Part shown: positions 833 through 39,088 of the stretch, one piece after another
How the letters are laid out: each line of letters starts with the position of its first letter
Position numbering within the stretch: position 1 is the stretch's first letter
Notes under the pieces: model-generated
The model's input: only the letters and a program-made list of their open reading frames with translations
What the model was told of the DNA's origin: nothing
Database searches by the model: none
Program-made: the position numbers and the translations under genes
Virus record (IMG/VR): IMGVR_UViG_3300027559_000001
Location: 1 to 39,088 of that record
Strand: one strand, 5' to 3'
Length of the DNA stretch: 39,088 bases
Origin: a virus

Positions 833-875
833 AAAAAACGCCAGAGCATAGTACTTAAGATACTATACTCTAGCG
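831..875 (-). terminator. Minus-sense intrinsic terminator in a plus-strand intergenic gap
   Basis: Arms 839-853 and 861-875 form 15 bp. The two odd positions are C.A in plus sense and G.U in minus sense. In minus sense the stem is followed by T8 (838-831). A weaker T5 at 882-886 could give some plus-sense activity. Confidence 0.6.
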
Positions 876-20578: not shown

Positions 20579-20977
20579 TTATTTCTCTCTATTGTAATAA
20601 ATTTTGTTTTTATCGATATCACTGATAAAATTTTGTAATTTAAAATCGATCGTTCTTAAAAGTTCAGTCATGTCCTTTACTTGGTTTCTCATATCAGAGA
20701 TAATTGAGGGAATATTATTTATCATAATTTTTACATTTTCTTCGTTCACAGGCATTTCATCGCGAAAGTGAAGATTGTTTTCATGTAATAGTCTTTGCAT
20801 TTCTCTCAAAGAAAATTTTCCAACATTTCTCCAGCTCATAATTTCTCTGGTTGTAAATGTCGCAAGCGTCCCTAACGTATGAATATTGTTAAATTTTAAA
20901 ATATTTTCTGTGCGCACACTCATTTCAAACCAATGCAATGGACGTACTTCTGGAGGAAGATTGCATTCCTCATCCAT
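20579..20977 (-). CDS. RNA polymerase alpha-subunit C-terminal-domain-like (helix-hairpin-helix) protein with a coiled-coil tail
   Basis: LHWFEMSVRTENILKFNNIHTLGTLATFTTREIMSWRNVGKFSLREMQRLLHENNL aligns by eye to E. coli RpoA CTD ([53 protein letters not shown]). ATGA-coupled to GroES. Confidence 0.7.
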   Translation of the reverse strand: MDEECNLPPEVRPLHWFEMSVRTENILKFNNIHTLGTLATFTTREIMSWRNVGKFSLREMQRLLHENNLHFRDEMPVNEENVKIMINNIPSIISDMRNQVKDMTELLRTIDFKLQNFISDIDKNKIYYNREK

Positions 20978-21247: not shown

Positions 21248-21907
21248 TTACTCCAGGTTTATTTCGATTGGAAAGTTTACAGGTTTATAGGCTCGGTTAA
21301 CTTGCGAGGCATTGACGAATTGCATATGAGGCATTTCATAGTCGCCACACAAACCAAATCCTTCATGGATGTGTCCAAATACATGCAACTTTAAGTTTTT
21401 GAGCTGTTTAATGCGTACCAGTAATGAAGTTGATCCCGAGTGAAATAGAGTGCCGTCATAGAAGTTTGGAATACCATCAAGGATACTAAAAGGTGGAGAA
21501 TGAGTAATGAGAACATTAGTATCATCAGGTATGAGAGCCCACTTTTCAATTAACTCTTCCTCTGTTTTCAAGGTAAATGCTTTGCACTTTGGGTTCATCC
21601 CAGGAAATTCTTTTGTCCAAGGTGATCCCCAGATTTTAAATCCATTGAATGAACATTCTTTATCTTCAAGGTAAGTTCCAAATTGTAATTTTAATCTTTT
21701 TTCTAGCAAAACATTGTCATGATTGCCGCCAATTATGATTTTAGCTGCATAGTTTTGTTCGTTAAGCCAATAATCAAAAAGCGCCATTTCATTTTCCAGA
21801 TCTCTAGAAGTCAAATCCCCGGCAACGATCAATAGATCGCCCCCAGGAAGCTTTGGATACTTACCATGTAAATCTGCTGTACATGTGATTTTCATGTGAA
21901 TCGCCAT
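21248..21907 (-). CDS. Calcineurin-like metallophosphoesterase
   Basis: Motifs DLHG, GDL, GNHD, THSPP and GHIHEG. The likely true start is MKITCTADLHG at 21895, which is ATGA-coupled to the upstream micro-ORF. Confidence 0.8.
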   Translation of the reverse strand: MAIHMKITCTADLHGKYPKLPGGDLLIVAGDLTSRDLENEMALFDYWLNEQNYAAKIIIGGNHDNVLLEKRLKLQFGTYLEDKECSFNGFKIWGSPWTKEFPGMNPKCKAFTLKTEEELIEKWALIPDDTNVLITHSPPFSILDGIPNFYDGTLFHSGSTSLLVRIKQLKNLKLHVFGHIHEGFGLCGDYEMPHMQFVNASQVNRAYKPVNFPIEINLE

Positions 21908-22223: not shown

Positions 22224-23131
22224 TATGTAAACCTCCACTTCGTGATAGGCTCTTTTCGATAAGCATCCAAGTTTATCCCTATCAACTCAGGAATCGAGTT
22301 ATAATTCACTCTTCCTTTTTCGACGATCTTGCACACTCTTATGCCCCCCCCAATTGTACTTTGGCCTCCAGTCATTAGGAGTAAATCATTCTTCACAGCA
22401 TCTTTCTCTTTTTCTAGGTCCTTTATGGCATCATCGAGTTGTTTATATCTCTCTGCCTTTGTCTTCCAGTCTTCAGATTCATTTTGCACAAAATCTTTGT
22501 TATCCAAAGATGGTGGGATAAAGTCTTTAACATGTTTCCAAAACTGATGAAGTCTTTCCATCATCGAGGTGACATAACCCATGTTCCTTACAATTGGAAC
22601 AATCACGGTGTCTCCTAAGTCTTTTAATTCACCGCTTTCTAGGATAGCTCCATGATTGGAAATGTAGAGCATGGTATCTAGGCCCATAACTTCCATGATG
22701 CCATTGACTTGACCCACATATTTGTCAGGAATCATCCCAAATTTAGCAAGCTCATGGTCTAACTTATTTGCCGTTTTTATCTCAATAACTGTTTTACCAT
22801 CTGAAGATATTCCGTCTAAGCTTGCGCCAAAATAGGCAATTTTGGGATGCTGATAAACGCAAGGTTGAAATTCTGTTTCAAGTTTGCGTGATACATAGTT
22901 CCTTACGTGGGGTTCTAGAACAACCCCACGTTTCATTGCCTCACTTTGCTGTTGCGTCTCACCTAAGCCTACCATCTCTTCCCATAGCTGATAACGGGTT
23001 TTGTAAGGACTTTCCCCCATGATAACGGGTATTTTAGAGGCTGTGAGTGTATTCAGGCGCCACTTGTGCCATTGTGGGGAGCCTTGTAAAACATCAATCT
23101 TTATTGGTTCATGCCGCATTGATAACCTCAC
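22223..23131 (-). CDS. YqaJ-type (lambda Exo-like, PD-(D/E)XK) recombination exonuclease
   Basis: GSPQWHKWRLNTLTASKIPVIMGESPYKTRYQLWEEMVG is the YqaJ N-terminal signature. It is paired with RecT. An alternative start lies at 23119. Confidence 0.8.
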   Translation of the reverse strand: MRLSMRHEPIKIDVLQGSPQWHKWRLNTLTASKIPVIMGESPYKTRYQLWEEMVGLGETQQQSEAMKRGVVLEPHVRNYVSRKLETEFQPCVYQHPKIAYFGASLDGISSDGKTVIEIKTANKLDHELAKFGMIPDKYVGQVNGIMEVMGLDTMLYISNHGAILESGELKDLGDTVIVPIVRNMGYVTSMMERLHQFWKHVKDFIPPSLDNKDFVQNESEDWKTKAERYKQLDDAIKDLEKEKDAVKNDLLLMTGGQSTIGGGIRVCKIVEKGRVNYNSIPELIGINLDAYRKEPITKWRFT

Positions 23132-23915
23132 CTGTTTTTAAATCCATTTCTAGGTTTGCTTTTTCTACTTCTTTGAGCTTTTCCTGAATACGGTTCAAAA
23201 GAATCTCATAGTCTTCACTTGTGAGATTTTTGAATCCCTTCTTTTTATCTACAACATTGTTGGTCACCATTTTGCGAAAGTTTTCAGGGCATTTGCTAAG
23301 TTCTAACGCAAGAAATTCATGCATCTCAGCAGTTACCCCTGGCACTTCTATGGTTTCCACATCATCGCTATAATGCTGGGCCTCAGCTTCACTTGATGGA
23401 AGATCCCCGCAAATATCTGGAAATGCTTTCTTGATAGAGGCCATCTCAGCGCATTTGATTAACTGACTTTTAGCACGTTCTCTCCAGGTTGCATTCGCCT
23501 CTCTTTGATCACCTTTACCCTTCATTTTAACGCATTCATCGTACCAGGCTTCACCGAAGACATCATGCCACGTTCCGTCTACGGTTCTTTTCTTAATCCA
23601 AACTTTTGCATAGACGGGCATTCCTCGATCATCGAAAGAAAGTTCAGTAGCTCTATCGCTTGGTGCATAATTGCCTGTCCTATCAGCAAGAGCTCTATAC
23701 CCTCCAATCCCTAAGATTGTCTGCATCACATTCCTGCCTGCACCACTATCCCAAATTGGGATCGCATGCACCTGCTTCATGAAAGGATCTAAGTTAAATT
23801 TCTTGCACAAATGGCTGAAAATGAAATACTCGGCATCAGAACAGCCTTTCGCCACGCTAGTCTTAACGGCCGCTTCCACCTCTTTGGTCCATTCGATCTT
23901 CATTAATTGACTCAT
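23109..23915 (-). CDS. recT: RecT/Bet-family single-strand annealing protein
   Basis: FNLDPFMKQVHAIP...ILGIGGYRALADRTGNY...QLIKCAEMASIKKAFPD fits RecT/Bet motifs as I recall them. It lies directly upstream of the exonuclease. Confidence 0.7.
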   Translation of the reverse strand: MSQLMKIEWTKEVEAAVKTSVAKGCSDAEYFIFSHLCKKFNLDPFMKQVHAIPIWDSGAGRNVMQTILGIGGYRALADRTGNYAPSDRATELSFDDRGMPVYAKVWIKKRTVDGTWHDVFGEAWYDECVKMKGKGDQREANATWRERAKSQLIKCAEMASIKKAFPDICGDLPSSEAEAQHYSDDVETIEVPGVTAEMHEFLALELSKCPENFRKMVTNNVVDKKKGFKNLTSEDYEILLNRIQEKLKEVEKANLEMDLKTGEVINAA

Positions 23916-24037
23916 GGTTTCTTCCTTTCGGGTTTGATTAAATTTTCTTCTATATTCTTCTCTAGATTTTCTAGGAACTCTTTCTCATCTTGTTTCAGCG
24001 ATTCGAAGAGAGTTTGCTTGTCAAATTCTTTTTCCAT
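23912..24037 (-). CDS. Acidic micro-protein (41 aa), first gene of the leftward operon
   Basis: MEKEFDKQTLFESLKQDEKEFLENLEKNIEENLIKPERKKP. ATGA-coupled to recT. The longer ORF up to 24337 runs through the divergent promoter region and the cro-like gene. Confidence 0.45.
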   Translation of the reverse strand: MEKEFDKQTLFESLKQDEKEFLENLEKNIEENLIKPERKKP

Positions 24038-24049
24038 CAGGGTTTCCTC

Positions 24050-24107
24050 TTGACTATAAAATATGCGTATGATAATAATATTACTAAAATAAGCGTATTT
24101 TACGCAA
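24050..24107. promoter_or_regulatory. Back-to-back divergent sigma70-like promoters with two operator-like direct repeats
   Basis: Rightward promoter: TTGACT (24050-55), N17, TAATAA (24073-78). Leftward promoter: TTGCGT (rc of 24102-07), N18, TAATAT (rc of 24078-83). The repeat TAAAATA(T/A)GCGTAT at 24057-70 and 24085-98 sits in each spacer. Confidence 0.5.
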
Positions 24108-24125
24108 CAGAAAAAGGAGAAAAAG

Positions 24126-24353
24126 ATGCAAATGAGAGAATATTTATCGAAAAAGGGTATATCGGCAGCTAAATTTTGCCGCGCATGTGACTTAGATTTA
24201 GCGACATTCAATAAAATCTTGAAAGGAGGAAATACAAGTTTTAGGATTGCTCTCAAAATCGTGAAATTTACCGATGATGAGGTGTCTCTTAACGAACTGG
24301 CTGGTCTTCCTAGAGTTCTTCCAAAAGGGTTTTTCAAATCTAACGAAAAATAA
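24126..24353 (+). CDS. Cro/XRE-like helix-turn-helix regulator
   Basis: GGAG RBS. REYLSKKGISAAKFCRACDLDLATFNKILKG is a typical HTH. It is the first gene of the rightward replication operon. Confidence 0.65.
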   Translation: MQMREYLSKKGISAAKFCRACDLDLATFNKILKGGNTSFRIALKIVKFTDDEVSLNELAGLPRVLPKGFFKSNEK

Positions 24354-24382
24354 AAAAGGCCTCGGCGATCCGCGCCGAAGCC
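24352..24382 (-). terminator. Minus-sense intrinsic terminator
   Basis: Arms 24358-67 and 24373-82 form 10 bp. The single odd pair is C.A in plus sense and G.U in minus sense. In minus sense TTTTTTA (24357-51) follows. Confidence 0.7.
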
Positions 24383-24624
24383 TTCCGTCTCCTAAACCTC
24401 AAATTTAAAAGACACACAAACGCAATGTGACTAGAAGCTTATCAAAGACGGTCTTTCTGGTCAATTTCTCTCTAGAATTAAAATTTTCTGGATTTTAAGT
24501 AAGACTTCAGCGACTCTCTGGCTCATTGCTCGCCAACGTGGCAAGCACTGAAAAGACAAAGCCCCCAACAGCTTAGACTCTGTTGAGGGCGGGATCCGAA
24601 TGGTTATTAGCGTGCCTTTCGATG
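24352..24624 (-). ncRNA. Candidate structured leftward RNA (about 270 nt), antisense to the cro-rep intercistronic leader
   Basis: Promoter at 24659-24631 (minus). Internal hairpins at 24561-24590 and 24527-24547 are intact only in minus sense. Terminator at 24382-24352. The only ORF is 15 codons. Confidence 0.5.
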
Positions 24625-24630
24625 TCGGTT

Positions 24631-24659
24631 ATTCTACTTACACATCACATTTGTGTAAA
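24631..24659 (-). promoter_or_regulatory. Sigma70-like promoter for the leftward RNA
   Basis: Minus strand reads TTTACA (rc of 24654-59), a 17-nt spacer, then TAGAAT (rc of 24631-36). Confidence 0.5.
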
Positions 24660-24734
24660 GGGTGAAGACTAAAAAAGGAAGAAAAAATAACCTTTCGGAT
24701 CTTTCAAAAGTAAACATAATTTGAAGGATCAGCC

Positions 24735-25604
24735 ATGACCCACGAAATCCAAGATCCAGATCTCCTGGCCGAAGTTGACACAACTCAAAATTTCATTGAG
24801 CTTGATCAAGATGATATCACCTCAAACTTTACGATTATTCCCAATGCTTTGATTCGGGACAAAAATCTCTCCCCCGATTGTTGCTATCTAATTATATTTT
24901 TACTAAGTAATAGACGTGACTGGCGCATAAACACCGCGCAATTGACGAAGGTATTCAAAGGAAGAATGGGACGGGAAAAGCTCTATAATCTCCTTCGGGA
25001 AGCGATTGAAGCCGGGTATATCAATCGCGAAATAACCAAAAATGGAAATCGATATGACGGATTCAAATATACTGTCGCGTCTACACCTAAATTCAAAAAA
25101 TGTTTGCCGCATACGGGTTTTCAGGAAGCGGGAATTCAAGACGTGGAAAACCAGCACACTAAAGAAGACTATCTAGAAAGAAAACCATCTATAAGAAATA
25201 AAACCTCCTTAAAGGTTCCAAAGGAACCGGATAAGCCAAAGCCAGAAATTTCTAAAGAAGCTAAGCAACTTGGTGATTGGATGAAGGAGGCTATAAAACA
25301 AACTGCTCCCGATGTGAATTTCAACTTCAAGGAGGATTTGTATATTTCATGCGATAGCTTGATCAAAAAGTCAGGTTGGACGGCTAAGCAACTTTATGAA
25401 GTTTTCATTAAGGGACTTAAGAGTGATTTTTGGAAAGCACATCTCCTCAAAGCTAATCCTGCGCATTACCTGTCATTTAAGGATCGTTATGTCACCATCA
25501 GAGAGCAAAATAATAAATCTGAACCACAAAGGAAGTTTGCGGCAGCTTCAACGCATGAAAGTGAAATGGAAATCGCGAAGAAAATGAGACAGGGGGCTTT
25601 ATGA
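24735..25604 (+). CDS. Replication initiator / replisome organiser (winged-helix N-terminal domain)
   Basis: FTIIPNALIRDKNLSPDCCYLIIFLLSNRRDWRINTAQLTKVF...LYNLLREAIEAGYINRE is the usual phage initiator N-domain. A DnaC-like loader follows. Confidence 0.65.
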   Translation: MTHEIQDPDLLAEVDTTQNFIELDQDDITSNFTIIPNALIRDKNLSPDCCYLIIFLLSNRRDWRINTAQLTKVFKGRMGREKLYNLLREAIEAGYINREITKNGNRYDGFKYTVASTPKFKKCLPHTGFQEAGIQDVENQHTKEDYLERKPSIRNKTSLKVPKEPDKPKPEISKEAKQLGDWMKEAIKQTAPDVNFNFKEDLYISCDSLIKKSGWTAKQLYEVFIKGLKSDFWKAHLLKANPAHYLSFKDRYVTIREQNNKSEPQRKFAAASTHESEMEIAKKMRQGAL

Positions 25605-26413
25605 AAACGATGAGAAGTATTTTACAAAAAACTCTTCTTCCTCAAACTGAGCCAAAAACTGTCGACTTTATCGTCGTAATCGGTGGGTGTAAAGCGATTG
25701 AACCAACTCTTTCGAGTGAGATTTCGTGCCCGATTTGTAGCGGTCGCGAGTATTACACCTTTTTAGAAAAAGGTAAGAGGACATGGTTTTGCGCGAATGG
25801 CAATTGCGCAACCAACTCTAAAGAAAACATAAAACCACCGAAATTTTTAAAAGACCCAAACGCAAGAGCAATAGGATGGTCTCAATTTTGCGACGAGAAT
25901 GATTTAGGAGATAAATTCTATCCTGTTAATTTTCATGGAATTAAGCAATCTCAGGAAAAGATAAATTACATGAAAAAGTATTTAGAAAAACCTCAGGGCA
26001 TTATCCTCATGCAGGGTTCAAAGGGGACAGGCAAGACTTATGCTGCATTAGGCATGTGTGAATTTTACACCCGATTTAGCACTTCATGTCGATTCATGAC
26101 CCAGAAAAATCTATTCCATCAGTGGATGCAAAATCGCGATCAAATATTAAATTTTGAGATAAGATTTAAATCACCAGAACTCTTAGTGATCGACGATTTT
26201 GGAACAGGAGAAATCTCGCCAGCGTTTATGTCTTTTTTTATGGATCTTGTAAATTTTCGGGAAGGATTCACAAATAAGGGAACGATTATAACGACCAATC
26301 TTTCTCCTGAGCAAATGATTAGCTATTGCGGGGATGCACTAGCGGACCGTATTTCTGTCGGAGTTTTATTTGAATTTAAAGAGGTATCGAGAAGGGCGAA
26401 AATTTGCTTATGA
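25601..26413 (+). CDS. DnaC/IstB-like AAA+ helicase loader with an N-terminal zinc ribbon
   Basis: Walker A GSKGTGKT and Walker B LLVIDDFG. N-terminal CPICSG...FCANGNC. ATGA coupling to the initiator. Confidence 0.8.
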   Translation: MKTMRSILQKTLLPQTEPKTVDFIVVIGGCKAIEPTLSSEISCPICSGREYYTFLEKGKRTWFCANGNCATNSKENIKPPKFLKDPNARAIGWSQFCDENDLGDKFYPVNFHGIKQSQEKINYMKKYLEKPQGIILMQGSKGTGKTYAALGMCEFYTRFSTSCRFMTQKNLFHQWMQNRDQILNFEIRFKSPELLVIDDFGTGEISPAFMSFFMDLVNFREGFTNKGTIITTNLSPEQMISYCGDALADRISVGVLFEFKEVSRRAKICL

Positions 26414-26796
26414 AAACTAAAATAGAAACGCGAGATTACTTCTGTATTAAATGCGGAAATGACCACTTTATAATTGGTAAAACTTTCATAGATATCAATG
26501 ATGAAGGTTTTCATTTTGATACCCAATGCTGGCGTTGCAATGAATGTGAGTATGAGTTAATGGATAGTGATCAGATGAATATAGCTAGGATGACTCTTCT
26601 GAATGCTAAAATTAACTTCTATGAACGTAAAGTCGCAAACTTTGAAGATACCGCATCTAAACTTGCTATCGCCAAACAGAAGAAGCGGGCATTGGAGCAA
26701 GCTATACAGGCAAACCAAGAAAAACAAGGAAACAATGCACTGGTATCTAAAAACGATAGAGAGGCCCCCGCTTCCCATAAAAGTGTCGATGTGTAG
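26410..26796 (+). CDS. Zinc-ribbon protein with a coiled-coil tail
   Basis: The ATG at 26410 is ATGA-coupled to the loader stop. CIKCGN...CWRCNEC. The 3' half overlaps the RusA-like ORF out of frame. Confidence 0.6.
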   Translation: MKTKIETRDYFCIKCGNDHFIIGKTFIDINDEGFHFDTQCWRCNECEYELMDSDQMNIARMTLLNAKINFYERKVANFEDTASKLAIAKQKKRALEQAIQANQEKQGNNALVSKNDREAPASHKSVDV

Positions 26797-26995
26797 GATA
26801 TCCCCAAGAGAGTATGATTATGACAACCTAGTGGCCTCTATGAAAGAAATTAGGGATAAGATAAGTGATTGGCTAATACCGGGGTTAGCGCCTGGTAGAG
26901 CTGATAGCGATGAAAGGATTACATGGCATTACATGCAAAAGAAGGGTGAGCCTAAGGAAGTTGCGCTTGAAATCACGTTTGAAAACGTGGAATAA
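26603..26995 (+). CDS. rusA: RusA-like Holliday junction resolvase
   Basis: LPIKVSMCRISPREYDYDNLVASMKEIRDKISDWL...DSDERITWHY...ALEITFE aligns by eye with E. coli RusA ([42 protein letters not shown]...LELTITE). The N-terminus SPNRRSGHW parallels PPSNNRYYRH. Confidence 0.65.
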   Translation: MLKLTSMNVKSQTLKIPHLNLLSPNRRSGHWSKLYRQTKKNKETMHWYLKTIERPPLPIKVSMCRISPREYDYDNLVASMKEIRDKISDWLIPGLAPGRADSDERITWHYMQKKGEPKEVALEITFENVE

Positions 26996-29514: not shown

Positions 29515-29988
29515 ATGATTACTTGGAAACTAGAAACTAGAAAACTGAAAGAGTTGCGCGAACATCCTCGCAATCCTCGCCAACTCAAAAAAGATCAATC
29601 AGATCATTTAATGCGCTCATTATCAACCTTCGGCATTGTTGAGAAGCCCATTATCAACTTAGATAATATGATCATTGGCGGCCATCAGCGTCTTAAGATT
29701 CTTAAGAAAATGAACTTAAAAGAAATTGAATGCTGGGTTCCTGATCGAAAGCTTGAGGATCGAGAAGTTGATGAGCTTTGCATTCGTCTTAATAAAAACA
29801 CAGGCGATTGGGATTGGGATGCTTTAGGTAATCTTTGGAATCCCCCCGATTTGATTGATTGGGGCTTTCATCCTGATGAATTGCTCGAGGGTATTACAGA
29901 TAACGAAGCTGCATTAACTGAACCTGAAGATTGCGGCTCATGCGAGCTATGTGGTCAAAAGCTAAAGGGTAAAAAGAAAGATGGCTAG
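29515..29988 (+). CDS. ParB-like nuclease domain protein
   Basis: LKELREHPRNPRQL...IVEKPIINLDNMIIGGHQRLKIL is the ParB/Srx N-domain pattern. C-terminal CGSCELCG. Confidence 0.7.
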   Translation: MITWKLETRKLKELREHPRNPRQLKKDQSDHLMRSLSTFGIVEKPIINLDNMIIGGHQRLKILKKMNLKEIECWVPDRKLEDREVDELCIRLNKNTGDWDWDALGNLWNPPDLIDWGFHPDELLEGITDNEAALTEPEDCGSCELCGQKLKGKKKDG

Positions 29989-35025: not shown

Positions 35026-35270
35026 TGACTGATTTCCCAAAGCATTTAACATTGTTAATAGAGCACAATCCTCATAAAAACTACTACCAAACTTCCAAAG
35101 AATGGTTTTATGATTATCACTGTTGTGAACAAGCCGATAAAGATGAATTTTCAGAAATCGATGATTTTTGGAAAATGCAATGGTATCCCAATACTCCCAT
35201 TGGTTTTCATGTAGTATTTGGAAGAACTTTGGAAGAGTGCCTTGAAAAAGCGAGGAAGTTGAATGACTAA
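35022..35270 (+). CDS. Hypothetical small protein (82 aa)
   Basis: ATGATGACTGAT start overlapping the upstream TGA. It ends AATGACTAA. Confidence 0.65.
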   Translation: MMTDFPKHLTLLIEHNPHKNYYQTSKEWFYDYHCCEQADKDEFSEIDDFWKMQWYPNTPIGFHVVFGRTLEECLEKARKLND

Positions 35271-35325
35271 GGAAAGAATAAAATCTATGAAATTAGAATT
35301 CATAACCAATTTGGAAATTTAACAA

Positions 35326-35523
35326 GTGGATAAAAAGAAATATAGCATTACGATTGAATTTACTGAAAAATCCTTCATGAATGATTTTATTGATCTTATT
35401 AAAGATGAAGACTGGAATACATATATAGAATATAAAATTATAAAAAACAAACCTGAATATTTAAATGAAATGGAAAATATCCTCTTTGAATTAAAAAAAA
35501 TTATTGAAAAAATAGATAGTTAG
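35326..35523 (+). CDS. AT-rich hypothetical small protein (65 aa, GTG start)
   Basis: ORF-track entry. Very Lys/Ile/Glu-rich. No RBS noted. Confidence 0.45.
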   Translation: MDKKKYSITIEFTEKSFMNDFIDLIKDEDWNTYIEYKIIKNKPEYLNEMENILFELKKIIEKIDS

Positions 35524-35558
35524 AATGTCATCATATTTATCAATTACCTGGAAAAAAA

Positions 35559-35777
35559 ATGACTGAGGAAGAATATAACACCGTAAATTTTATAGATGGT
35601 ATTTATAGGCCTCCCCATCATCCTGGGTCAATAGCGCAAAACGCAACGCTCGGTGTAAAATTCTCCAATGACATTTATGTAACTTCGGATATAGCTAAGG
35701 AATGGGGAATTAATGAAACCAATGCAGAATGGGTACCCGATCATCCTTTGGGTCCTTGTTGGAGAATTAAAAGATGA
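35559..35777 (+). CDS. Small protein, paralogue of 27028..27207
   Basis: Starts with AATGACTGAGGAAGAATAT, a 19-mer identical to 33328-33346. C-terminal GVKFSNDIY...EWGI...WRIKR. Confidence 0.65.
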   Translation: MTEEEYNTVNFIDGIYRPPHHPGSIAQNATLGVKFSNDIYVTSDIAKEWGINETNAEWVPDHPLGPCWRIKR

Positions 35778-36004
35778 CTGATAAATTCAAGCGTACCGGG
35801 TCAAATCAAAATATAGATCCTAAATATGTTAAAATAGTGGCTGGAATAAATGAAGATCTTTTAGGTGCATATGATGAAAATGTTTTTGTAATTCATCCTC
35901 CCGAAGGAACGGAATTCAAGGAATGTCCTTTATGCAAGAATCCTTTCGTCTACAATGGAATGCTTTCAAATTGTTTGTGGTGTGAGATTAATAAAGATGA
36001 CTGA
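35774..36004 (+). CDS. Zinc-ribbon small protein (76 aa)
   Basis: ATGA-coupled. CPLCKNPF...CLWCE. Confidence 0.65.
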   Translation: MTDKFKRTGSNQNIDPKYVKIVAGINEDLLGAYDENVFVIHPPEGTEFKECPLCKNPFVYNGMLSNCLWCEINKDD

Positions 36005-36164
36005 GGCAGAAAATAAAATTGTGAATCCTAAAAATGTTATGGAAATTTTTCGTAAACGTGCAAAAAAAAATCCAAACCTAGAAGCTGCATATATTGAAGA
36101 GAAGAAAAAATACTCAGTGATTTTAAGAAAGACTAATGTCAAATCTTTCACAACACTCACATGA
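35997..36164 (+). CDS. Basic small protein (55 aa)
   Basis: ATGACTGAGGCAGAA start with an 8-nt overlap on the upstream stop (MTEAENKIVN...). Confidence 0.5.
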   Translation: MTEAENKIVNPKNVMEIFRKRAKKNPNLEAAYIEEKKKYSVILRKTNVKSFTTLT

Positions 36165-36167
36165 TCT

Positions 36168-36419
36168 GTGAGGGCTGTTTTAATTTTAAAAACATCATAT
36201 GCCTCCAAGACACAACAAGGAGGCACCAAAAAGCCACATAAGGGTTATTATCAGACGTTTAAGCAAGCAAAACTCCCCCTTTCAACTCTTCTGTCTTTAT
36301 CAGGGAAAACCAAAATGTCTTTAGGGGGAAATTCCAAGCTTAGCAAGTCGAGATTTATTCGACAACTCCAAACTTATAAAAAACCCGGGGTACGCCCCCG
36401 GGAAACCATCAACCAATGA
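36168..36419 (+). CDS. Doubtful ORF (83 aa, GTG start, low-complexity basic)
   Basis: No RBS. It contains a GC hairpin plus A-tract (36378-36402) that reads as a minus-sense terminator. The region may be non-coding. Confidence 0.25.
   Translation: MRAVLILKTSYASKTQQGGTKKPHKGYYQTFKQAKLPLSTLLSLSGKTKMSLGGNSKLSKSRFIRQLQTYKKPGVRPRETINQ
36378..36402 (-). terminator. Minus-sense intrinsic terminator upstream of the portal gene
   Basis: CCCGGGG - 5-nt loop - CCCCGGG is a perfect 7-bp GC stem. In minus sense TTTTTTAT follows; in plus sense AAACCATC follows. Confidence 0.55.
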
Positions 36420-36526
36420 AGTGTTCGAAACCCACCTTATTCATGTCCCCATTTCCAGGCAAGAAGTAATAAACATATAAATTAAAATTTATTGTATATA
36501 AAATACTCGGCCGATAATGTCGGGTT

Positions 36527-38989: not shown

Positions 38990-39088
38990 CAATTAAATAT
39001 TTAAATTGATATCTGTTGGGGTCGACATTTGTCGGCCCTTTCCATTTAAGGAGATATTATGATTATAGCACAGATGATTATTTGGATT
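38990..39088. repeat. Terminal redundancy copy B (identical to nt 1-99)
   Basis: Exact 99-nt match to the window start. Confidence 0.95.

Follow-up and report, generated by a model that had tools for sequence, protein, structure and literature searches.

Signals for a probable OOP-like antisense RNA facing a structured replication-initiator leader in an uncultured phage

The 39,088-nt stretch held in IMG/VR as virus record IMGVR_UViG_3300027559_000001 (positions 1 to 39,088; referred to here as the window) encodes a small cro-like protein and a Rep-like replication initiator on its plus strand, and the two genes are separated by a gap of 381 nt (24354-24734). This gap is free of open reading frames (ORFs), as had been noted in an earlier reading made from the sequence alone: no ORF of at least 15 aa with a usable Shine–Dalgarno sequence is present in it. 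The signals that it carries are real and beyond chance. They point to a leftward noncoding unit, the existence of which we regard as quite likely, and the gap as a whole is interpreted here, with fair confidence, as the gene of a short OOP-like antisense RNA, equipped with a back-up terminator and facing a long structured rep leader. The chances that this unit exerts negative control over rep appear to be about even. The unit would most likely add one more case to a type of control already known and would not be a new kind of RNA.

The unit is made up of a promoter-like site and two terminator-like sites ordered on the minus strand (Table 1). The hexamers TTTACA and TAGAAT with a 17-nt spacer, to which the sequence-only reading had drawn attention, are present and match the consensus at ten of 12 positions. 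Only 12 sites of this quality occur in the whole window on both strands, and the chance of finding one on the correct strand within 120 nt upstream of the first hairpin is approximately 0.02. The three minus-sense stems described in the same reading (24561-24590, 24527-24547 and 24358-24382), each with a single G·U pair that becomes C·A in the plus sense, are likewise all there. What had been overlooked is the tail directly after the hairpin 24590..24561, TTTGTCTTTT, which makes this hairpin (T1) terminator-like. With a stability of −18.8 kcal/mol, T1 ranks fourth among the hairpin-plus-T-tail sites of the 39 kb on both strands, and the downstream terminator T2 (24385..24355, −21.9 kcal/mol) ranks second. 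Such strong sites are expected about 0.03 times per strand in 381 nt; the gap has two, on one strand. A d'Aubenton-Carafa-type terminator score is 8.9 for T1 and 28-52 for T2 in the minus sense, compared with 12.6 for lambda tO on the same formula, and is strongly negative for both in the plus sense (−69 and −23, respectively).

As a separate observation, the minus strand carries all six of the strongest terminator-like sites of the genome, even though the majority of genes are encoded on the plus strand. Besides T1 and T2, such sites lie between plus-strand genes at 875..839 and 36402..36384 and inside the metallophosphatase ORF at 21849..21816, and a further strong minus-strand terminator-like site lies at 29586..29551. 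Those elsewhere in the genome could be further antisense units or insulators.

The T-tails are stronger evidence for the strand of the unit than the G·U positions. The argument from the G·U positions is weak when taken alone (three of three stems, p = 0.125). Each of the three stems is 4-4.7 kcal/mol more stable in the minus sense (for the second hairpin, H2, −15.3 versus −11.4 kcal/mol), and the fold of the whole 291 nt has a z-score of −3.6 in the minus sense versus −2.7 in the plus sense, a modest difference. The earlier statement that the folds are intact only in a leftward transcript holds for the three stems that had been chosen but not for the structures at 24428-24463 and 24591-24703, both of which favour the plus sense. 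No tRNA or tmRNA was found by scanning. Two short ORFs were considered and rejected: a 35-aa minus-strand ORF (24568..24461, TTG start) has no Shine–Dalgarno sequence, and in a 20-aa plus-strand ORF (GTG 24662, TGA 24722-24724) the sole Shine–Dalgarno-like motif abuts the start codon. The TGA of the latter overlaps the rep Shine–Dalgarno sequence by two bases; a tap-like leader peptide in the gap is unlikely.

What the sequence itself shows are signals resembling a promoter and terminators, the structures, and the pairings described below that exclude each other, and from them we infer that an RNA is produced, where its ends lie and what its effect would be. Transcription from the putative sigma-70-type promoter (24659..24631) would start near 24625, this position having been set at 5-8 nt beyond the −10 hexamer. 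Because the score of T1 resembles that of lambda tO, the primary RNA is predicted to be about 75 nt in length, probably 24625..24551. Most transcripts would stop at T1 (24590..24561 and its U-tract); for those extending past it, the end would be the stronger T2 (24386..24354) next to the cro stop codon, and antisense transcription would thereby not enter cro. A leftward noncoding unit, as proposed in the sequence-only reading, is the best reading of the gap, but the form of about 270 nt needs read-through past T1: an RNA of approximately 270-275 nt (to 24346) would be the read-through product, and only this form would contain H2. A second, weak minus-strand promoter-like site could also feed T2. 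The claim that the RNA is much longer and more structured than OOP is not supported, as the predicted product of about 75 nt consists of a largely unpaired 5′ tail of 34 nt and a single terminator hairpin.

The rightward transcript is presumed to originate at the cro-like promoter upstream of the gap. No plus-strand promoter (at least nine of 12 matches, 16-18 nt spacer) was found in the gap and no plus-strand terminator-like site was found within 23500-25500; the rep transcript from the cro promoter must therefore cross the gap, which bears out what had been suggested earlier. A plus-strand attenuator was rejected on account of the same absence of terminator-like sites. Both predicted forms of the RNA lie wholly in the cro–rep intergenic leader and are fully complementary to it, the short form overlapping no ORF and the long form reaching only the cro stop codon, and a countertranscript of this leader remains the best reading of a promoter and terminators that are ordered on one strand of an ORF-free gap. 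Being perfectly complementary to the leader of the rep and dnaC-like genes, the antisense RNA could lower initiator synthesis in three ways. Its tail could pair with the left arm of a long leader hairpin, by which the right arm would be freed to form an 11-bp helix over the rep Shine–Dalgarno sequence. The 75-bp RNA duplex could be cut by a double-strand-specific RNase, as is OOP paired with the cII–O mRNA (PMC5869508). Lastly, the converging polymerases could interfere with one another, as at lambda pR/pO (PMC3985674).

The long leader hairpin, which is the strongest structure in the gap, was missed in the sequence-only reading. It is formed by an imperfect inverted repeat of 113 nt (z = −5.3 and −5.2 on the two strands; −40.7 kcal/mol in the plus sense versus −32.0 kcal/mol in the minus sense), encloses the antisense promoter in its upper half and ends 20 nt before the rep Shine–Dalgarno sequence. 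A perfect palindrome at its apex is a possible operator. The left arm of the hairpin is the complement of the 5′ tail of the antisense RNA, and this tail is nearly identical to the right arm (AAUAACCAUUCGGAUC versus AAUAACCUUUCGGAUC), so tail and right arm compete for the left arm. The alternative 11-bp helix, which covers the rep Shine–Dalgarno sequence, excludes the base of the long hairpin because both need 24698-24702 (GAUCU). In the folded model of the free leader only a 6-bp helix is present (−0.5 kcal/mol) and the Shine–Dalgarno sequence has an unpaired probability of 0.21-0.28. With 24551-24624 held unpaired, which mimics bound antisense RNA, the 11-bp helix is formed (−9.5 kcal/mol) and the unpaired probability is 0.01. 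A Shine–Dalgarno switch of this type is put forward only tentatively.

A comparison was made with distant loci of the Rep family (five obtained through protein look-ups, 32 from IMG/VR and four from genomes), of which 40 non-redundant ones were scored, a terminator being defined as a stem of −12 kcal/mol or stronger with a T-tail at −300 to −20 from rep. A minus-strand terminator is present upstream of rep at 25 of the 40 loci, compared with a plus-strand terminator in the same region at two. The corresponding counts in control regions are 4/41 and 1/41 inside rep, and 3/39 and 3/39 further upstream. The stem is more stable in the minus sense at 21 of the 25 loci. The terminator is found irrespective of the direction of the upstream gene (17 of 28 co-oriented and seven of 11 divergent) and is concentrated in the closer relatives. 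Between terminator and rep there is a minus-strand promoter-like site at about 19 of the 25 loci, with predicted RNAs of 54-220 nt, mostly 54-150 nt, and several relatives have two tandem minus-strand terminators. In three relatives (L005, L006 and L010) the −10 hexamer reads CATAAT or CATATT, its CAT being the complement of the rep start codon ATG, and 17 nt deeper into the gene there is a −35 hexamer resembling TTGACA. Lambda, scanned with these tools, shows exactly this geometry: pO is TTGAGT-17-CATAAT over the start codon of O, and tO lies 57-84 nt upstream. The family-wide pattern and these scans of lambda make the parallel with lambda OOP and plasmid countertranscripts, which had been proposed earlier, an apt one. 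The rep genes of the three relatives start at 185 (L005), 1019 (L006) and 3001 (L010), and a semi-conserved V-N/K dipeptide at Rep codons 8-9 coincides with the −35 hexamer.

The leader between the terminator and the rep Shine–Dalgarno sequence is structured (z ≤ −3) at 15 of 22 loci, compared with 1/22 and 1/20 in controls, and the structure is usually one hairpin spanning the region. When the antisense target is blocked in silico the accessibility of the Shine–Dalgarno sequence or the AUG falls at nine of 13 loci, and that of a control stretch inside rep is unchanged; at four further loci the predicted antisense RNA directly overlaps the Shine–Dalgarno sequence and the AUG. The position of the promoter relative to the hairpin varies among loci, and in L015 the whole hairpin would fall inside the antisense RNA. 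For this reason the Shine–Dalgarno switch, the control of rep and the existence of the unit are graded separately. The architecture recurs without sequence conservation, and the recurrence of antisense terminator, long hairpin and antisense promoter upstream of rep is suggestive; its function is beyond what sequence comparison can show. Two of the Rep-family contigs, L043 (PLXT01000065.1) and L044 (CAZRIK010000076.1), are filed under archaeal metagenome-assembled genomes (Methanobacterium sp. and Bathyarchaeia); given their bacterial-type Shine–Dalgarno and promoter signals they are probably mis-binned phage contigs.

Several points weigh against the interpretation as an OOP-like unit and are considered here together with its alternatives. 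Promoter-like sites with at least nine of 12 matches are no commoner here than in shuffled sequence, the promoter and terminator rules of the host are assumed ones, and the Shine–Dalgarno switch is a thermodynamic prediction. The promoter match could have arisen by chance and the hairpins could be features of the cro–rep mRNA (processing sites, stabilizers or attenuators) with no leftward RNA at all. All of the stems also fold in the plus sense (z = −2.7), and a hairpin just past the cro stop codon could stabilize a processed cro mRNA. We consider this very unlikely, since the T-tails are on the minus-strand side only, the plus-sense terminator scores are negative, all three stems are weaker in the plus sense and a strand asymmetry of 25 to two across the family cannot stem from plus-sense mRNA elements.

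A further point concerns T1, the U-tract of which is interrupted and on the efficiency of which the ratio of the 75-nt and 275-nt products would depend. If T1 were inefficient it would be an internal stem-loop and T2 would be the sole terminator of a single structured leftward RNA of approximately 270 nt, as in the sequence-only reading. T2 is by far the stronger terminator (28-52 versus 8.9), the loop of T1 is large (8 nt), H2, the hairpin beyond T1, likewise carries its only wobble pair in the minus sense and tandem minus-strand terminators are present in several relatives; moreover, a strong T2 implies that leftward transcription gets there. However, T1 scores like lambda tO, which does end OOP, and the units predicted in relatives are mostly of 54-150 nt. 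The stretch 24387-24520 is AU-rich and poorly structured in the minus sense, its one good hairpin (24428-24463) favouring the plus sense, and T2 could serve the weak second promoter (24464..24436) instead. A single 270-nt RNA is seen as unlikely.

The hairpin could also act as DNA. The long hairpin of the relatives has no consistent strand preference, and iterons are found between the minus-strand terminator and rep in four of them, which hints at a role as origin or operator. In L016 (~1180-1250) ATTATCAG-type units are repeated six to seven times and in L007 (2900-3000) GGTAGCCTTATTGTTAA occurs twice; the other iterons are in L012 (~1250-1380) and L005 (~100-180). These iterons are likely to be origins or Rep operators. 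In the window, the inverted repeat of 113 nt, which is associated with GGTTATT and GGATC repeats, could correspondingly be an origin or a region bound by Rep or a repressor, with any RNA being incidental and the leftward terminators only insulating cro and the early promoters from stray antisense transcription. The repeat is equally significant on both strands and has a perfect palindrome at its apex, and some short words are over-represented in the gap: GGTTATT and its complement occur three times (0.2 expected) and CGGATC also three times (0.13 expected). GGATC is found at 24592, 24697 and 24726, that is, in both feet of the hairpin and in the rep Shine–Dalgarno sequence, and five GATC sites (24593-24759) lie within 176 nt (24590-24765; 0.9 expected, P = 0.002 uncorrected). 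The GATC cluster was set aside as evidence, as an equal density is found, in 200-nt windows, at two further places of the genome. No multi-copy direct repeats (iterons) were found in the gap, and an iteron-type origin, which would have at least three direct repeats of about 15-22 bp beside an AT-rich unwinding region, was rejected there because only short recurring words and no direct-repeat family are present. In addition, the hairpin of the window phage is 8 kcal/mol better in the mRNA sense, an insulator presupposes a leftward promoter, and one is present, and the precise overlap of the hairpin base with the anti-Shine–Dalgarno helix would be left unexplained. A purely DNA-level element is therefore judged to be improbable; such an element would also be compatible with an antisense RNA, pO activity and origin function being coupled in lambda (PMC3985674).

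Two alternatives accept leftward transcription but not an antisense role for its product. Convergent transcription could act by itself, through interference with or occlusion of the transcript from the cro promoter, the RNA having no sequence-specific role. Transcription driven by pR in lambda is reduced by the activity of pO, which also adjusts replication in a manner that does not depend on cII (PMC3985674); the RNA sequence is not conserved among the relatives, and tandem terminators would confine the zone of collision. This leaves unexplained the mutually exclusive pairing of the leader hairpin and the Shine–Dalgarno sequence, the drop in accessibility on target blocking in nine of 13 relatives and the long single-stranded 5′ tail of the antisense RNA, and we hold it to be distinctly improbable. 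The second alternative, the least probable of all, is that the leftward transcript is a primer or R-loop former for leftward DNA synthesis at an origin beside rep, which was the first role suggested for oop and resembles ColE1 RNA II and the T4 and T7 origins. Its position adjoins the initiator gene, iterons are present in the equivalent region of relatives and an A-rich stretch (24665-24690) flanks the promoter. However, a primer role has been abandoned for lambda oop (PMC3985674), two efficient-looking terminators favour a released RNA and a DnaC-like loader is encoded, so that host helicase and primase are presumably recruited.

The OOP-like interpretation must also be set against the scarcity of relatives of the window sequence. 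Other copies of the phage (L001 from ENA and L002 from JGI) are 100% identical across the gap and thus offer no covariation information, and there is no close relative, with no Rep homologue above 48% identity. In all-against-all comparison with blastn(-short), the antisense region of the window is unlike that of any relative or lambda oop, and the family pattern is therefore to be read as analogy, a recurring design, and not as homology. No match was obtained for a query of 24000-25700 against GenBank phage DNA (blastn) or when IMG/VR was scanned for the Rep protein and for the sequence of T1, and a scan of JGI metagenomes with a degenerate T1 pattern gave six unrelated hairpins only. The Rfam check suggested in the sequence-only reading returned no match at gathering thresholds in the whole window. 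In E-value mode the matches in the gap are all sub-threshold and driven by T2 (FopS, 25 bits, threshold 56; ctRNA_p42d, 16.7 bits, threshold 50, E = 1, covering the T2 hairpin only). Rfam also has no match in the lambda oop region and 13 relatives; as lambda oop itself has no hit, Rfam contains no model of OOP and cannot test OOP membership.

Precedents for this arrangement have been described for OOP and pO in lambda (PMC5869508, PMC3985674). Like OOP, the predicted RNA is a short leftward untranslated RNA between the cro side and the initiator gene (77 nt in lambda and ~75 nt predicted here), is convergent with the rightward early transcript (the unit of the window lying 110-184 nt upstream of rep) and shows the sequence signals of a sigma-70-type promoter and of an intrinsic terminator that scores similarly. 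The exact pO geometry on the initiator ATG is seen in L005, L006 and L010. In the window, by contrast, the promoter is off the start codon (its −10 hexamer ending 99-104 nt before the ATG of rep) and within the leader hairpin, and there is a second strong terminator 200 nt further on. The RNA has no sequence similarity to oop and is not antisense to the 3′ end of cII, there being no cII; its likely target is the rep leader itself. Transcriptomic work on the Salmonella prophage BTP1 has revealed an RNA in the OOP position (OOP-BTP1), which shows that the OOP-type arrangement recurs beyond lambda (PMC7067206). OOP-BTP1 and its kin belong to enterobacterial lambdoid phages with cII, whereas the phage of the window has an unrelated Rep and no detectable cII.

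The predicted RNA is also like the countertranscript RNAs (ctRNAs) of plasmids (pMV158 RNAII, R1 CopA, ColE2 RNA I and those of pT181 and pIP501) in being a cis-encoded antisense RNA from the leader of the initiator mRNA. CopA and ColE2 RNA I act at a distance, and the RNA of the window is similarly predicted to act upstream of the Shine–Dalgarno sequence by refolding the leader. The closest in shape and target is pMV158 RNAII, which has a 5′ single-stranded tail and a single terminator hairpin and blocks the translation of repB from the initiator leader (PMC4485353). The setting differs from that of plasmid ctRNAs in being a phage early operon; there is no plus-strand attenuator terminator, unlike in the attenuation type of pT181 and pIP501, and no convincing leader peptide, unlike in the tap-coupling type of R1. 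None of the Rfam ctRNA models (pND324, pGA1, pT181 and p42d) is matched by the RNA.

Table 1. Features of the cro–rep gap and its surroundings, with positions in the window.
Feature	Position	Strand	Description
Antisense promoter-like site	24631..24659	−	TTTACA 24659..24654, 17-nt spacer, TAGAAT 24636..24631; 10/12 match
Perfect palindrome TTACACA-N7-TGTGTAA	24638..24658		Forms the tip of the long hairpin; shares bases with the −35 hexamer and the spacer of the antisense promoter
T1 terminator (putative)	24551..24590	−	11-bp hairpin 24590..24561, 8-nt loop, one G·U, then UUUGUCUUUU
T2 terminator, strong (putative)	24344..24386	−	13-14 bp stem, one G·U, tail TTATTTTTCG; abuts the cro stop codon
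H2 hairpin	24523..24551	−	9 bp plus three flanking pairs, one G·U, no T-tail; scored as non-terminator
Weak second promoter-like site	24464..24436	−	TTGACC-17-TGaTAAGCT; 8/12 with extended −10 TG
Predicted short antisense RNA	24551..24625	−	~75 nt: 34-nt mostly unpaired 5′ tail and T1 hairpin
Imperfect inverted repeat, extended hairpin	24591..24703		113 nt; lower stem 24592-24608 with 24686-24702, 15/16 complementary
Alternative 11-bp helix	24698..24730	+	GAUCUUUCAAA (24698-24708) with UUUGAAGGAUC (24720-24730); covers the rep Shine–Dalgarno sequence GAAGGA (24723-24728)
10-bp hairpin	24428..24463	+	−10.6 kcal/mol in plus sense versus −5.2 kcal/mol in minus sense
Gap between cro-like gene and rep	24354-24734		381 nt
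Leftward early operon	23109-23915 (RecT)	−	42-aa ORF, RecT, YqaJ/RecE-like exonuclease, metallophosphatase
Divergent promoter region			Between the leftward early operon and the rightward cro-like gene
cro-like promoter site	24050..24079	+	TTGACT-18-AATAAT; 10/12 consensus match
cro-like helix–turn–helix gene	24126..24353	+	75 aa; Pfam HTH_26, E = 2e-4, just under the cut-off
Rep-like replication initiator gene	24735..25604	+	PHROG replication-initiation families; homologues found
DnaC-like helicase loader	25601..26413	+	Pfam and PHROG; translationally overlaps rep

The window is a circular phage assembly with an exact direct terminal repeat of 99 nt (1-99 and 38990-39088), which gives a genome of about 38,989 bp. 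The phage is uncultured and its portal gene is P22-like. The rep gene is presumed to be the target of the regulation. No cII-like gene was found between cro and rep in the ORF and Pfam scan of the window, and a search of 5.8 billion proteins with the cro-like protein gave only the protein itself. Between the divergent early promoters there is an operator-like region (24057-24102), a 46-bp imperfect palindrome that overlaps the cro promoter and contains two direct copies of TAAAATAWGCGTAT (24057 and 24085), a motif unlike the TTACACA palindrome of the antisense promoter.

Some other features of the genome are recorded here. In the early-left operon, a 132-aa protein (20579-20977, minus strand) has a Pfam hit (RNA_pol_A_CTD, E = 2e-10) to the C-terminal part of the alpha subunit of bacterial RNA polymerase, and a phage-encoded protein of this type could redirect host transcription. 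Downstream of the DnaC-like gene are two plus-strand ORFs of 130 aa (26404-26796 and 26603-26995), which overlap by 194 nt in different frames and have no Pfam hit; in the relative L010 the second gene after that of the DnaC-like protein encodes a RusA resolvase. A low-GC stretch of 1.5 kb (35026-36526; GC content 0.32) upstream of the portal gene contains no ORF of at least 90 aa and includes the minus-strand terminator 36402..36384 and a 10/12 minus-strand promoter-like site at 35465.

Beyond the OOP-like interpretation, it is conceivable, although we doubt it, that the terminator, long hairpin and embedded antisense promoter form an undescribed conserved cassette of a large family of uncultured phages. 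Such a cassette may be a plasmid-style RNA switch, in which the antisense RNA flips the hairpin of ~110 nt and the freed arm sequesters the ribosome-binding site; were the RNA to act in trans, superinfecting relatives could be excluded as well. Alternatively, the inverted repeat may be the origin, with the antisense transcript coupling transcription to initiation.

Short antisense units and leader hairpins escape gene callers and Rfam, and a strong antisense terminator 50-250 nt upstream of rep could serve as a signature for annotation. If the interpretation as an OOP-like unit is correct, OOP-type countertranscription against the initiator message would not be peculiar to enterobacterial lambdoid phages, but a solution that recurs in a Rep family unrelated to theirs and found in metagenomes of soil and peat. 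It would work without cII and hence would be aimed at the initiator itself, as in the control of plasmid copy number.

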